Below, in pieces: positions 21,135-25,470 of a DNA stretch of 64,000 nt. Numbering within the stretch: position 1 is the first letter of the stretch; the number at the start of each line of letters is the position of its first letter. The DNA lies in the NCBI RefSeq assembly GCF_022846255.1, contig NZ_AP025682.1, one strand, 5' to 3'. Under the pieces are notes generated by a model. That model ran no database searches and was not told where the DNA came from. It saw nothing but the letters and a program-made list of their open reading frames with translations. The position numbers were made by a program, and so were the translations under genes. This DNA comes from Escherichia coli. Lineage in GTDB: Bacteria > Pseudomonadota > Gammaproteobacteria > Enterobacterales > Enterobacteriaceae.

Positions 21135-21503
21135 GACCGGGACTCCCAATGCTTAAAATATCGGACAGTTCGGTGGGCACACAGAAACAAATTGGGTTTC
21201 AGACCATTAAACAGCCTGACTCAGCGCGACGGGAAAAATTGAGGTCGCTGACAACCGCTAAGGCTATCAGCAAAAAGGGATAGCCTTAGGAGTTGATCCT
21301 GGATGACAGGATAGTGAGCCAGTATCTACTGGGTGTGTCCAAGGCGAATGTCCTCTTAGAGTGATCGTGCGCGCATGTTACGCCAGCAAAATTTTGCCGT
21401 CAACACGCAACAGAACACCACAGAACAATAGTTGAACTTCGCGCTTTTTGGTACTCGTCAAGGTCGCTAACAGGATAAAAAAATCCCACATCCAGGACCT
21501 ATA

Positions 21504-22268
21504 ATGGCGCATCGGCTACTCATTGGTAAAGGAATGATCACCTTGAATCTCAAACGGATTTTTCTCGCCCTCACCTTACTTCCCTTGTTTGCTGTTGCCG
21601 CTGATGATTGCGCACTCTCAGATCCGACGCTGACCGTACAGGCGTATACCGTTAATACTCAAACAGAGCGGGTGAAAATGTACTGGCAAAAAGCCAATGG
21701 CGAAGCGTGGGGAACGTTACATGCGCTGCTGGCGGATATGAATAGTCAGGGTCAGGTGCAGATGGCGATGAACGGCGGCATCTATGATGAAAGCTATGCG
21801 CCGCTCGGTTTGTACATCGAAAACGGTCAGCAGAAGGTGGCGTTAAATCTCGCTTCAGGTGAAGGGAATTTCTTTATTCGTCCTGGCGGCGTGTTTTATG
21901 TCGCGGGAGATAAAGTCGGCATCGTTCGTCTGGATGCCTTTAAAACCAGTAAAGAGATTCAGTTTGCGGTGCAGTCAGGGCCATTGTTGATGGAAAACGG
22001 TGTAATTAATCCGCGTATTCATCCCAACGTCGCCTCACGTAAAATTCGTAACGGTGTTGGGATTAATAAACATGGGAACGCCGTGTTTTTGTTGAGCCAG
22101 CAGGCGACAAATTTTTATGATTTTGCCTGTTATGCCAAAGCAAAACTGAACGTTGAGCAGCTGCTTTATCTTGATGGCACAATTTCACATATGTATATGA
22201 AAGGCGAGGCAATCCCGTGGCAACGCTATCCTTTTGTCACCATGATTTCCGTCGAGCAGAAAGGTTAA
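21504..22268 (+). CDS. yigE: DUF2233 (phosphodiester glycosidase-like) protein YigE
   Basis: 254-aa ORF with N-terminal signal-like segment; length and position match K-12 yigE as I recall. Confidence 0.75.
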   Translation: MAHRLLIGKGMITLNLKRIFLALTLLPLFAVAADDCALSDPTLTVQAYTVNTQTERVKMYWQKANGEAWGTLHALLADMNSQGQVQMAMNGGIYDESYAPLGLYIENGQQKVALNLASGEGNFFIRPGGVFYVAGDKVGIVRLDAFKTSKEIQFAVQSGPLLMENGVINPRIHPNVASRKIRNGVGINKHGNAVFLLSQQATNFYDFACYAKAKLNVEQLLYLDGTISHMYMKGEAIPWQRYPFVTMISVEQKG

Positions 22269-22350
22269 ACATTGTACACTCGAGGAGGCCAGACAAACTG
22301 GGGCTGGCTACACAGCTGGAAAATCATCAGATAAATGAAGGGAAACAAAA

Positions 22351-23253
22351 ATGAAAAAAACGCTCGCAACATTATTTTTATTAACCTGTCTGGGGTCATC
22401 ATCCGCTTATGCGGATAACGCTTTGATTTTACAAACGGATTTTAGCCTGAAAGATGGTGCCGTCTCGGCGATGAAAGGGGTCGCTTTCGGCGTTGACCAT
22501 AATCTTAAAATATTTGATTTAACACACGAAATTCCACCGTATAACATCTGGGAAGGCGCTTACCGCCTGTATCAGACTGCCAATTACTGGCCGCAAGGTT
22601 CGGTGTTTGTTAGCGTGGTCGATCCTGGTGTTGGTACAGAGCGTAAATCGGTAGTGCTGAAAACCAAAAATGGTCAGTACTTCGTTTCACCAGATAACGG
22701 TACGCTCACGTTGGTGGCGGAATCGCTGGGTATTGAGAGCGTCCGGCAAATCGATGAAAAAACCAACCGTCTGAAAGGTTCCGAAAAGTCATATACCTTC
22801 CACGGTCGTGACGTGTATGCCTACACCGGTGCACGTCTGGCTTCCGGGGCGATCACGTTCGAGCAGGTGGGGCCAGAGCTTCCTGCAAAAGTTGTCGAAC
22901 TTTCTTATCAGAAAGCCAAAGCAACAAAAGGTGAAGTGAAGGGCAATATCCCGATTCTCGATATTCAGTACGGCAACGTCTGGAGCAATATCAGCGACGA
23001 GTTGCTGAATCAGGCAGGAATCAAACTCAACGACACGTTGTGTGTGACCATTTCCGAAGGTTCCCAGCAAAAATACGCAGGGAAAATGCCGTATGTCGCA
23101 AGCTTCGGCGATGTGCCGGAAGGCCAGCCGATGGTGTATCTGAACAGCTTATTGAATGTTTCCGTGGCGCTGAATATGGATAATTTCGCGCAGAAACATC
23201 AGGTTGCGTCTGGTGCTGACTGGAATATTGATGTGAAGAAGTGCGCTAAGTAA
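22351..23253 (+). CDS. DUF62 / SAM hydroxide adenosyltransferase-like protein with Sec signal peptide
   Basis: MKKTLATLFLLTCLGSSSAYA signal peptide with AxA cleavage site; ILQTDFS...MKGV and VVDPGVGTERK motifs characteristic of the SAM hydrolase/fluorinase-like family. Confidence 0.75.
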   Translation: MKKTLATLFLLTCLGSSSAYADNALILQTDFSLKDGAVSAMKGVAFGVDHNLKIFDLTHEIPPYNIWEGAYRLYQTANYWPQGSVFVSVVDPGVGTERKSVVLKTKNGQYFVSPDNGTLTLVAESLGIESVRQIDEKTNRLKGSEKSYTFHGRDVYAYTGARLASGAITFEQVGPELPAKVVELSYQKAKATKGEVKGNIPILDIQYGNVWSNISDELLNQAGIKLNDTLCVTISEGSQQKYAGKMPYVASFGDVPEGQPMVYLNSLLNVSVALNMDNFAQKHQVASGADWNIDVKKCAK

Positions 23254-23262
23254 GTTACTGAT

Positions 23263-23293
23263 GCCGGATGCGGTGTGGCGCACCGCATCCGGC
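23263..23293. repeat. REP-like palindrome between convergent DUF62 gene and uvrD
   Basis: GCCGGATGCGGTG tggcg CACCGCATCCGGC, 13-bp perfect stem. Confidence 0.6.
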
Positions 23294-23307
23294 AACGGAA
23301 TCGTAAA

Positions 23308-25470
23308 TTATACCGTCTCCAGTCGGGCGTAAGCCGCCACCAGCCATTTAATACCCTGGCCCTGGAACGCCACCTGCAAACGGCTATGCTCACCGCTGCC
23401 TTCCATATTGACGATGGTGCCTTCACCAAACTTAGCGTGGCGTACGCGCTGGCCGAGCTTGTAGCCGCTGTCGTTCTCGACCATCGGCGTACCCATCCGT
23501 TGATGGCTGACCGGGCGGCTTACCGTGGCGCGCAGGCGCACCTCTTCCACACACTCTTCCGGCAACTCACCGATAAAGCGCGACGGGCGATGGTAAACCT
23601 CTTTGCCATATAGACGGCGGGTTTCCGCGTAGGTCAGCGTCAGTTTCTGCATCGCGCGGGTTACGCCAACGTAGGCCAGACGGCGTTCTTCTTCCAGACG
23701 CCCGCCTTCATCCAGCGACATCTGGCTTGGGAACATGCCCTCTTCCATACCAACGATAAACACCTGCGGGAATTCCAGACCTTTCGCCGAGTGTAGCGTC
23801 ATCAACTGCACAGCATCCTGCCAGGTATCCGCCTGCCCCTCGCCCGCTTCCAGCGCCGCATGGGAGAGGAATGCCTGCAGCGGCATTAAATCTTCGTCTT
23901 CTTCGTTGTAGCTGAACTGGCGCGTTGCCGTCACCAGTTCCTCTAAGTTTTCGATACGCGTCTGACCTTTTTCGCCCTTCTCCTGCTCGTACATGGTGCG
24001 CAGGCCGGAGTCTTTAATTACCCGGTCAGTCTGTACATGCAGCGGCATATCGGCAGTTTCCTGCGCTAAGGCGTCGATTAATTCCATAAATCGCTGTAAG
24101 GCGCTGGCAGCACGTCCGGCGAGGGCTTTTTCCTGCAACAGTTCACGGCACGCTTGCCACAGCGTTAACTGTCGATCGCGCGATGCCTGACGTACCACGT
24201 CCAGCGTCCGGTCACCAATACCCCGCGTTGGCGTATTCACCACACGCTCAAAGGCCGCGTCGTCGTTACGGTTGGCAATCAGGCGTAAATACGAGAGCGC
24301 ATCTTTGATTTCCTGGCGTTCGAAGAAGCGCATCCCGCCGTAAATACGGTACGGCATACTCGCCTGCAACAGTGCTTCTTCCAGCACGCGCGACTGGGCG
24401 TTGCTGCGGTAGAGAATGGCGCACTCGGCAAGCGCCCCACCATTGTCCTGCCAGGTTTTGATGCGGTTAACGACAAAACGCGCTTCGTCGAGTTCGTTAA
24501 AAGCGCAATAGAGGGAAATCGGCTCACCGTCCGCGCCATCGGTCCACAACTTTTTACCCAAACGCCCGTTGTTGTTTTCAATCAGGGCGTTAGCGGCGCT
24601 CAGAATGTTGCTAGTGGAGCGGTAGTTTTGCTCCAGACGAATGGTTTCGGCACCGGGGAAATCATTGAGGAAACGCTGAATATTCTCTACCTGCGCCCCA
24701 CGCCAGCCGTAGATTGACTGGTCGTCATCGCCAACGATCATCACTTTGCCAGTATCGCCCGCCAGCAGGCGGATCCACGCGTACTGAATGTTGTTGGTAT
24801 CCTGGAATTCGTCCACCAGGATGTTAGTAAAACGTTCGCGGTAGTGTTGCAGGATATGCGGCTTGTTAAGCCACAGTTCGTGGGCGCGTAGCAGTAGTTC
24901 AGCGAAGTCTACCAGGCCCGCGCGGTCGCACGCTTCCTGATACGCCTGGTACACCTTCTGCCAGGTCTGCTCCACCGGATTACCGTAGCTTTGAATATGA
25001 TGCGGACGCAGCCCTTCATCTTTCTGGCTGTTGATGTACCACATTGCCTGGCGCGGCGGCCACTGCTTCTCGTCGAGGTTCATGGCTTTGATCAGACGCT
25101 TAAGCAGGCGCAACTGGTCTTCGCTGTCGAGGATCTGGAAATCCTGCGGCAGGTTGGCGTCCATATGGTGCGCACGCAGCAGACGGTGTGCCAGCCCGTG
25201 GAAAGTGCCGACCCACATACCGCCCTGGCTGGTACCCATCAGTTGCCCGATACGATGGCGCATTTCCGCCGCCGCTTTGTTGGTAAATGTCACCGCCATA
25301 ATCGAGTACGGCGAGCAGTTTTCCACGCTCATCAGCCAGGCGATACGATGCACCAGTACGCGCGTCTTACCACTGCCCGCGCCCGCCAGCACCAAAAGGT
25401 TGCTGCGTGGCGCGGCCACCGCTTCGCGCTGTTTGTCATTAAGGCTGTCGAGCAGGTAAGAAACGTCCAT
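23308..25470 (-). CDS. uvrD: DNA helicase II
   Basis: MDVSYLLDSLNDKQREAVAAPRSNLLVLAGAGSGKTRVLVHRIAWL... 720 aa from internal ATG of ORF 23308..25656. Confidence 0.97.
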   Translation of the reverse strand: MDVSYLLDSLNDKQREAVAAPRSNLLVLAGAGSGKTRVLVHRIAWLMSVENCSPYSIMAVTFTNKAAAEMRHRIGQLMGTSQGGMWVGTFHGLAHRLLRAHHMDANLPQDFQILDSEDQLRLLKRLIKAMNLDEKQWPPRQAMWYINSQKDEGLRPHHIQSYGNPVEQTWQKVYQAYQEACDRAGLVDFAELLLRAHELWLNKPHILQHYRERFTNILVDEFQDTNNIQYAWIRLLAGDTGKVMIVGDDDQSIYGWRGAQVENIQRFLNDFPGAETIRLEQNYRSTSNILSAANALIENNNGRLGKKLWTDGADGEPISLYCAFNELDEARFVVNRIKTWQDNGGALAECAILYRSNAQSRVLEEALLQASMPYRIYGGMRFFERQEIKDALSYLRLIANRNDDAAFERVVNTPTRGIGDRTLDVVRQASRDRQLTLWQACRELLQEKALAGRAASALQRFMELIDALAQETADMPLHVQTDRVIKDSGLRTMYEQEKGEKGQTRIENLEELVTATRQFSYNEEDEDLMPLQAFLSHAALEAGEGQADTWQDAVQLMTLHSAKGLEFPQVFIVGMEEGMFPSQMSLDEGGRLEEERRLAYVGVTRAMQKLTLTYAETRRLYGKEVYHRPSRFIGELPEECVEEVRLRATVSRPVSHQRMGTPMVENDSGYKLGQRVRHAKFGEGTIVNMEGSGEHSRLQVAFQGQGIKWLVAAYARLETV

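Follow-up and report, generated by a model that had tools for sequence, protein, structure and literature searches.

The interval between yigE and uvrD in Escherichia coli raises the question of what an enzyme of the DUF62 family, whose known members act on S-adenosyl-L-methionine (SAM), might do outside the cytoplasm. In the 64,000-nucleotide stretch of contig NZ_AP025682.1 (RefSeq assembly GCF_022846255.1) analyzed here, referred to as the window, this interval holds a gene whose predicted product joins an N-terminal export signal to a DUF62 enzyme, and which has a close counterpart in Helicobacter pylori (HP0709). The explanation that we consider best as a whole, and to which we give about an even chance, is that the protein is an exported, competent periplasmic SAM hydrolase that scavenges exogenous SAM, and that its gene is an old, dispensable E. 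coli gene shared with Helicobacter by transfer. The gene is an uninterrupted open reading frame (ORF) with an ATG start, encoding 300 amino acids followed by a stop codon, and its placement between yigE and uvrD agrees with the coordinates of a preliminary description of the locus.

22351..23253, plus strand: full coding sequence of the predicted exported DUF62/SAM hydroxide adenosyltransferase family protein (ORF, Pfam, structure alignment, AlphaFold, Foldseek).
22414..23250, plus strand: predicted mature enzyme, residues 22-300, with an N-terminal alpha/beta domain and a C-terminal beta domain (Pfam, AlphaFold, Foldseek).

The preliminary description had assigned the protein to DUF62/PF01887 from the hallmark motifs of SAM hydroxide adenosyltransferases. 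The quoted motifs are present in the ORF, and a hidden Markov model (HMM) search confirmed the assignment, with PF01887 (SAM_HAT_N) matching residues 26-174 (E = 3.8e-53, model positions 2-145 of 145) and PF20257 (SAM_HAT_C) matching residues 198-291 (E = 3.9e-18). The sequence also matched every solved family member, namely 2zbu (1e-43), SalL (2e-36), MJ1651 (1e-34) and PH0463 (3e-34). Enzymes of the family form homotrimers whose active sites lie where subunits meet. An AlphaFold model of the monomer, built from a 57-sequence alignment, had a mean predicted local distance difference test (pLDDT) score of 94.2. In Foldseek comparisons, its target-normalized template modeling score (TM-score) was 0.92 to 2zbu (E = 1.9e-32), 0.90-0.92 to SalL and 0.87-0.88 to PH0463; the closest of these, 2zbu from Thermotoga maritima, was deposited as uncharacterized. 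An Asp-Arg-His triad that activates water is strictly conserved in DUF62 hydrolases and missing from the fluorinase and chlorinase, and is formed in PH0463 by D68, R75 and H127 (PMC10491745, PMC4859513). When the protein was aligned by HMMER to 1wu8 (PH0463), D91, R98 and H151 matched these three residues exactly.

22621..22623, plus strand: codon of Asp91, first triad member, equivalent to PH0463 Asp68 (alignment to 1wu8/2wr8; kept in 79/80 leader-bearing homologues).
22642..22644, plus strand: codon of Arg98, second triad member, equivalent to PH0463 Arg75 (alignment to 1wu8; kept in 79/80 leader-bearing homologues).
22801..22803, plus strand: codon of His151 in a TFHGRD motif, third triad member, equivalent to PH0463 His127 (alignment; kept in 74/80).

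The adenosine-binding motifs of the family are an Asp equivalent to FlA D16, PxNG, and xxxGN with an Asn equivalent to FlA N215 (PMC4859513). The corresponding adenosine/SAM-binding residues are kept here: D30, which was invariant in an 80-sequence alignment, P114-D115-N116-G117 and Y207-G208-N209. Since both the triad and these residues are intact, the protein is best classified, by its sequence, as a hydrolase-type and not a halogenase-type DUF62 member. Its scores against the NCBIfam equivalog models of (R)-SAM hydrolases, NF058624 and NF053629, were 132.2 bits (cut-off 350) and 115.8 bits (cut-off 470), both below threshold, which places it by sequence as a relative of the characterized (R)-SAM hydrolases and not as their equivalog.

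The same residues bear on whether the protein could be a SAM-dependent halogenase, an adenosyl-chloride synthase that makes 5'-chloro-5'-deoxyadenosine from SAM and chloride. HP0709 is named "adenosyl-chloride synthase" or "salL" in UniProt/Prokka-style annotation (PMC6090961, PMC6212823), the chlorinases SalL and ClA1 are among the best structural matches, and the niche of H. pylori is rich in chloride. However, the full triad is present here and missing in halogenases; in SalL, the three positions are occupied by Tyr, Thr and Tyr, and the window protein has Val89 opposite the halide-site Tyr70 of SalL (PMC10491745, PMC4859513). Moreover, the central motif region matched hydrolases at 1e-21 to 1e-28, as compared with 1e-7 to 1e-12 for chlorinases and fluorinases, and the fluorinase model TIGR04507 gave 84.7 bits, below its cut-off of 400. 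The flanks contain no downstream genes of a halometabolite pathway, and the gene stands alone without a biosynthetic cluster around it, a point that we count in favor of a scavenging hydrolase. We regard a halogenase as scarcely credible.

The evidence for export begins at the N-terminus, MKKTLATLFLLTCLGSSSAYA followed by DNALILQTDF, which has the parts of a Sec signal: an n-region with K2K3, a 12-residue h-region (TLATLFLLTCLG) and a c-region SSSAYA with Ala at -3 and -1 (A19-Y20-A21 before D22). The leader was assessed by inspection, a hydropathy heuristic and comparative evidence.

22351..22413, plus strand: predicted Sec signal peptide, codons 1-21 (sequence inspection, outside the fold, low pLDDT, same leader type in 80/80 homologues).
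22325..22350, plus strand: 5' leader with ribosome-binding site GAAGGGA, the one stretch of flanking DNA in which homology to the HP0709 locus of H. pylori persists (blastn).

The segment lies outside the catalytic fold: cytoplasmic homologues of solved structure start aligning at query residue 24-28, and in the AlphaFold model, pLDDT was ~55 over residues 1-20 and >90 from residue 21. The preliminary description had called this a classical Sec signal with an AxA site, a reading upheld by the K2K3 pair, the hydrophobic core and the AYA motif before Asp22. The signal peptide is probably of Sec type, with cleavage between A21 and D22 and export from the cytoplasm. Between E. coli and H. pylori, the leader evolved with an omega (dN/dS) of 0.37, relaxed but non-neutral, as compared with 0.05 for the mature part, which is under strong purifying selection, and in both species the leader has been kept open and signal-like despite a dS of ~1. 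A lipoprotein reading of Cys13 was rejected, as the Thr at -1 breaks the lipobox rule and Cys13 is missing in one H. pylori lineage (SA213A).

A cytoplasmic protein, either translated from a later start such as the TTG at codon 25 or carrying an uncleaved, non-exporting extension, would instead perform housekeeping removal of (R,S)-SAM. All characterized family members are cytoplasmic (PMC10491745; bioRxiv 10.1101/2025.08.29.672840), leaderless close relatives exist at 45-52% identity, and the TTG (22423-22425) lies just before the first beta-strand, where it is a conceivable start for a leaderless cytoplasmic isoform, with only a weak GGA upstream. Against this, the ATG is preceded at 8 nucleotides by a good Shine-Dalgarno sequence, GAAGGGA, within the only flanking segment that E. 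coli and H. pylori still share; all 80 of the nearest homologues have leaders of this type with unrelated sequence, some with lipoboxes; and the leader stayed open and signal-like over the divergence noted above. A conserved cysteine pair is, in addition, confined to leader-bearing sequences. We consider a cytoplasmic location very unlikely.

23041..23043, plus strand: codon of Cys231, proposed disulfide partner of Cys298 (co-occurrence; in strand 229-236 of the model).
23242..23244, plus strand: codon of Cys298, proposed partner of Cys231, in a conserved C-terminal KKC motif (co-occurrence; just past the last strand, 291-297).

Among the window protein and 79 homologues, 33 had both cysteines, 47 had neither and none had a single one, and the pair was found in 0/15 leaderless representatives. 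This pattern, which belongs to a proteobacterial clade, suggests a periplasmic disulfide between C231 and C298; since it is in the periplasm, not the cytoplasm, that disulfides form, a structural disulfide would point to the periplasm.

The preliminary description regarded an exported member of this family as unexpected. The leader is there, but it is not an oddity of E. coli, as the protein falls into a large multi-phylum clade with leaders. The 80 closest homologues, taken as full ORFs from species-representative genomes at 56-96% identity, all carry a basic-hydrophobic-small-residue leader directly before a near-invariant ALVxQTDFGLKDGAVSAMKGVA. They span Proteobacteria, Bacteroidota, Verrucomicrobiota, Synergistota, Fusobacteriota, Tissierellia, Thermotogota and Planctomycetota. 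Among the 150 nearest 50%-identity cluster representatives, drawn from 1.8 billion proteins, 56 had signal-like leaders (16 with a lipobox), 44 were leaderless, 9 were ambiguous and 41 were fragments or otherwise not assessable, so that signal-like leaders made up 56 of the 109 assessable representatives. The leader-bearing clade has near-invariant K42, Y148, Y207, N209 and N265-S266 (73-79/80), positions that vary among leaderless relatives, and is abundant among free-living bacteria of soil and water (Chitinophaga, Verrucomicrobiota, Aeromonas). In the literature searched, we found no functional study of an exported or periplasmic DUF62 protein and none of HP0709, and this large branch is undescribed there; we know of no exported enzyme described as acting on SAM. 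Some representatives carry further domains. In Fervidobacterium metagenome-assembled genomes (MAGs; L067:6001-7920 and L081), proteins of 639-640 amino acids combine a signal peptide, SAM_HAT_N, two SAM_HAT_C domains and Y_phosphatase3, of the tyrosine-phosphatase family (HCxxGxxR). By eye, the C-terminal tails of two other representatives resembled VanX/M15 peptidases (P0205) and alpha/beta-hydrolases (P0159).

We found that the best matches beyond Escherichia/Shigella were proteins of H. pylori and H. acinonychis, of exactly 300 amino acids and 88-89% identity; the Helicobacter homologues comprise clusters of 2579 and 1500 member sequences plus complete genomes. The H. pylori gene is HP0709, or jhp0648 (PMC6083042). 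The E. coli protein and HP0709 aligned without gaps at 88.7% amino acid and 83% nucleotide identity, with 64% identity at third codon positions, a dS of 0.99, a dN of 0.062 and an omega of 0.06. Homology by blastn covered 22325-23254 of the window, beginning ~26 nucleotides before the ATG, with the ribosome-binding site included, and ending at the stop codon; the conserved upstream block reads CATCAGATAA..GGAAA..ATG. The surroundings in H. pylori are different, with uvrA, hopE, rsmH and HP0708 on one side and the homA/B site, an HD-domain gene and rpoN on the other. The GC content of the gene is intermediate in both hosts (47.8% in the 52% E. coli window and 42.9% in the 38% H. pylori locus).

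In neighbor-joining trees, Escherichia and Helicobacter grouped with 100% bootstrap support and were joined by Edwardsiella (89%), then by Pasteurellaceae, Thorsellia, Neisseriales and Aeromonas; a Neisseriaceae MAG sequence (L038, 6001-6899) with a long branch and an apparent frameshift or misassembly near codon 37 (TDFGLKDG running into VRFQ) was left out of the bootstrap analysis. Because HP0709 branches within the enterobacterial clade, the comparison points to inter-class horizontal transfer between an Escherichia-like enterobacterium and the ancestor of H. pylori and H. acinonychis. The most likely course, as judged from the trees, is a single transfer from the enterobacterium into Helicobacter, after which both lineages kept the gene under long purifying selection; the opposite direction is also conceivable, the Escherichia and Helicobacter groups being reciprocally monophyletic. 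The transfer was not recent, because dS is near saturation. We found no paper describing the transfer of HP0709 between E. coli and H. pylori in the literature searched, and the near-identity of an accessory E. coli gene with a conserved H. pylori gene is likewise undescribed there.

Several studies have met HP0709 in other contexts. Its single-nucleotide polymorphisms are among the top hits of a gastric-cancer genome-wide association study (GWAS), the authors of which note conflicting annotations (PMC6090961), and patients make anti-HP0709 antibodies, a serological marker that tracks gastric lesions (PMC11394471). The protein was detected in outer-membrane vesicle (OMV) preparations (PMC8756444), and its transcript was up 2.9-fold in biofilm, where that of the methionine permease gene metI was up 2.2-fold (PMC6212823). 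A prophage study reports integrations beside HP0709 (PMC11321410). The gene directly downstream, at the homA/homB site, varies: a ~660-amino-acid protein without a Pfam match is encoded there in loci L003, L005 and L006 (7129-9114) and is missing in L004.

E. coli is not known to take up SAM, while adenosine and methionine have transporters; with a SAM hydrolase in its periplasm, the cell would thus gain two usable products from a compound that it cannot otherwise use. According to the explanation that we favor, the protein would be made with a cleavable Sec signal, cut after Ala21, and would work in the periplasm, stabilized by the C231-C298 disulfide. SAM released from lysed cells or host tissue would pass the porins into the periplasm and be unable to cross the inner membrane. 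There, the enzyme would bind it, and Asp91, Arg98 and His151 would activate a water molecule for bimolecular nucleophilic substitution (SN2) at C5' of the adenosyl group; attack of a triad-activated water at C5' of SAM is established DUF62 chemistry (PMC10491745). Cleavage would yield adenosine and L-methionine, both of which existing nucleoside and methionine transporters could import. In Helicobacter, a host unable to make purines, the transferred gene would have become the conserved HP0709. H. pylori requires methionine. It is also a purine auxotroph that salvages nucleosides via NupC and related systems (PMC13328217, PMC13280913).

Several points weigh against this explanation. Free SAM is scarce outside cells. 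Export, cleavage, the disulfide and activity are predictions from sequence, here and for every leader-bearing homologue; the signal call comes from inspection, the hydropathy heuristic and comparison, and the 33 sequences with the cysteine pair are essentially one clade, so that the co-occurrence may reflect a single evolutionary event. The scores far under the equivalog cut-offs mean that the substrate or the stereo-preference may differ. The OMV proteome that lists HP0709 includes ribosomal proteins, and export is not proven by it. The characterized DUF62 enzymes are slow catalysts; salt strongly inhibits one of them, and the authors who described it question whether SAM hydrolysis is its physiological role (PMC12120602). 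Finally, at no locus examined was the gene linked to a transporter for methionine or nucleosides or to a SAM/Met riboswitch. ORF clustering within 4.5 kb at 78 loci gave, as conserved neighbors, only synteny internal to Aeromonas; HMM annotation of 20 tightly linked same-strand neighbors returned unrelated housekeeping genes (including glgA, fldB, xseA, sbcB, tpx, dnaJ, ligA, a GGDEF protein and hemW); and Rfam scans of 23 loci, including those of Firmicutes, Fusobacteriota and Bacteroidota, where SAM/Met riboswitches are common, found no riboswitch. In Synergistota, an NCS1 nucleobase permease and a generic amidohydrolase each appeared once among the neighbors, and neither recurred.

Two further observations concern the surroundings of the gene. 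A role in anti-phage defense was considered and rejected, as PADLOC models had no match for the DUF62 protein or YigE. In 13 Aeromonas loci (L010-L036), an exported RNase T2/RNase I-like protein (HGLWPQ, signal peptide) is encoded ~5 kb downstream; it is another periplasmic nucleic-acid-scavenging enzyme, and this synteny, seen in Aeromonas only, may be coincidental.

An exported and active enzyme could also serve a purpose other than SAM scavenging. It might act on (R,S)-SAM from extracellular epimerization, decarboxylated SAM, 5'-halo-5'-deoxyadenosines or a sulfonium nucleoside toxin, or its adenosine product might matter in itself, for example by damping mucosal host immunity. The scores under the known (R)-SAM hydrolase cut-offs fit another substrate, as do the near-invariant residues peculiar to the leader-bearing clade (K42, Y148, Y207, N209, N265-S266) and the Fervidobacterium fusions to a tyrosine-phosphatase-family domain; the association of HP0709 alleles with gastric cancer (PMC6090961) and the antibodies that track gastric lesions (PMC11394471) fit another purpose. 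However, SAM hydrolases have the same triad and adenosine-binding residues, and displacement at C5' depends on a good leaving group; among natural adenosine derivatives, few apart from SAM provide one (PMC10491745). The abundance of the clade among free-living bacteria of soil and water is contrary to a host-directed role as its general function; general scavenging fits this breadth better than a host-specific role. Altogether, we see a different substrate or purpose as possible but rather unlikely.

How the gene came to lie in this E. coli was examined by comparison of genomes. A survey of presence and absence, as suggested in the preliminary description, found it in 2413 of 5426 complete E. 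coli genomes (~44%), single-copy, chromosomal, at one locus and with the same annotation throughout. Identity to the window gene was 100% in enteropathogenic E. coli E2348/69, 99.1% in CFT073 and 95.8% in O157:H7 and O55:H7, and the gene is missing from K-12 and many further strains. In K-12, the space between yigE and uvrD is 146 bp of sequence made of repetitive extragenic palindromic (REP) and bacterial interspersed mosaic elements. Relative to K-12, the left breakpoint lies immediately 3' of the yigE stop codon and the right one inside the REP element, and K-12 has no gene remnant. Here, the two REP halves, which lie apart with other sequence between them in the K-12 junction alignment, form a palindrome with the core GCCGGATGCGGTG/CACCGCATCCGGC, which marks the right border of the presence/absence polymorphism.

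23251..23305, no strand assigned: REP-type palindrome between the convergent DUF62 gene and uvrD (inverted repeat, 25-nucleotide arm, 80% complementarity).

A recent insertion into this E. coli was rejected, as in distant Escherichia lineages the gene and the core genes beside it have diverged to a similar degree. Escherichia sp. MOD1-EC7003 and E. coli SCPM-O-B-8794 have the gene in the same yigE-uvrD slot, and their divergence from the window copy is similar for the gene (93.5% and 92.4% identity, respectively), yigE (93.2% and 89.9%) and uvrD (92.9-94.5%). Because its divergence keeps step with that of yigE and uvrD, the gene is most likely an old resident of the locus that was lost by deletion in K-12-type genomes. 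Carriage on a plasmid or mobile element was rejected, since near-identical "plasmid" matches occurred only in chromosome-sized records of ~4.9 Mb. A genome scan returned no homologue from E. albertii, E. fergusonii, Salmonella or other enterics, with the limits that the scan needs shared 8-residue words and that the collection lacks some species; Aeromonas homologues at 72-76% identity were readily found in the same scan.

Two side observations concern the locus in other strains. E. coli HS-02 (NZ_CP172818.1) retains just a 3' portion of the gene (43%; query 519-903 at 93.3% identity), named "SAM hydroxide adenosyltransferase", an independent partial deletion. Identity to K-12 was 98.2% for yigE, 97.6% for corA and 94.7-96.4% for uvrD; the divergence of uvrD is unusual in a core gene of E. 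coli and suggests that a distinct haplotype block, or recombination in the past, surrounds the site where the DUF62 gene is present or absent.

The gene itself is not new, as its family membership is already annotated in RefSeq: at the identical locus of strain FEX669, the order is corA, ysgD, yigE, WP_000751610.1 and uvrD, and WP_000751610.1 is named "SAM hydrolase/SAM-dependent halogenase family protein".

21504..22268, plus strand: yigE, predicted exported NAGPA/phosphodiester glycosidase family protein, the upstream neighbor, present with or without the DUF62 gene.

The gap of 82 nucleotides between yigE and the DUF62 gene, on the same strand, makes co-transcription possible. A scan for promoters and terminators returned nothing above shuffled expectation, and no terminator-like site in this gap. 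uvrD (23308-25470) is convergent, with its stop codon at 23308, and the REP-like palindrome that the preliminary description saw as shared with uvrD was located as the inverted repeat at 23251-23305; it is likely a shared 3' stabilizer or terminator for the two genes. The estimate of ~2.2 kb for the uvrD-corA interval, thought larger than in K-12, also proved right (~2.17 kb here as compared with 1.28 kb in K-12), the difference arising because the DUF62 gene is present here and missing in K-12. The small ORF ysgD, of the YsgD/CorL leader peptide family, lies upstream of corA at 21286-21342 on the minus strand, with coordinates transferred from the RefSeq annotation of the identical locus.

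Beyond this locus, we tentatively propose that exported DUF62 proteins, which range from Bacteroidota of soil to Proteobacteria of the gut and stomach, are a large, unrecognized extracytoplasmic class of SAM-cleaving enzymes, through which bacteria unable to import SAM harvest adenosine and methionine from SAM in their environment, and that one member of the class moved between an Escherichia-like lineage and that of H. pylori and feeds the latter with purines and methionine; we see this as rather less likely than not. The sole role proposed for the family, cytoplasmic removal of epimerized SAM, cannot explain the leader-bearing branch, which makes up about half of the nearest relatives. If shown, the function of these enzymes would define a new extracellular step in the economy of SAM, methionine and purines, and would explain a conserved, antibody-eliciting, cancer-associated protein of H. 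pylori. It would also cover an accessory gene of B2 and O157-type pathogenic E. coli (E2348/69, CFT073, O157:H7, O55:H7), whose absence from K-12 may be the reason that it was never studied. The proteins of E. coli and H. pylori, 89% identical, make this an unusually clear case of inter-class transfer between bacteria of the human gut and stomach. The gene thus offers a testable lead on what DUF62 enzymes are for, linked to a medically relevant H. pylori protein.

Among known systems, the SAM hydroxide adenosyltransferases or (R)-SAM hydrolases (Pyrococcus horikoshii PH0463, M. jannaschii MJ1651 and Salinispora StDUF62) share with the window protein the two Pfam domains, the fold (TM-score 0.87-0.92), 30-34% identity, the Asp-Arg-His triad, the adenosine-binding Asp, PxNG and xxxGN. 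In contrast to the window protein, with its predicted 21-residue Sec signal, clade-specific cysteine pair and sub-cut-off scores, they are leaderless and cytoplasmic, and the removal of epimerized SAM proposed for them in the cytoplasm cannot apply in the periplasm. HP0709/jhp0648, automatically named "adenosyl-chloride synthase" or "acetolactate synthase", is an orthologue with the same length, leader type, triad and cysteine pair; it differs in its genomic context and in being conserved across very many H. pylori genomes, whereas the gene is accessory in E. coli. The halogenases SalL, ClA1/ClA2 and FlA belong to the same superfamily and share the fold and the SN2 chemistry at C5' of SAM (PMC10491745). 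They lack the triad and have halide-site residues (Y70 and G131 in SalL, T80 and S158 in FlA), whereas the window protein has the triad and a Val at the position of SalL Y70; they are cytoplasmic and encoded in biosynthetic clusters, whereas the window gene stands alone. Among the nutrient-scavenging hydrolases that Gram-negative bacteria export to the periplasm or surface are UshA 5'-nucleotidase, CpdB and RNase I, which turn non-importable nucleotide-type compounds into importable nucleosides. In H. pylori, NucT and NupC are examples of such scavenging (PMC13328217). The window protein would follow the same logic as UshA, CpdB, RNase I and NucT, by means of an unrelated fold and chemistry.

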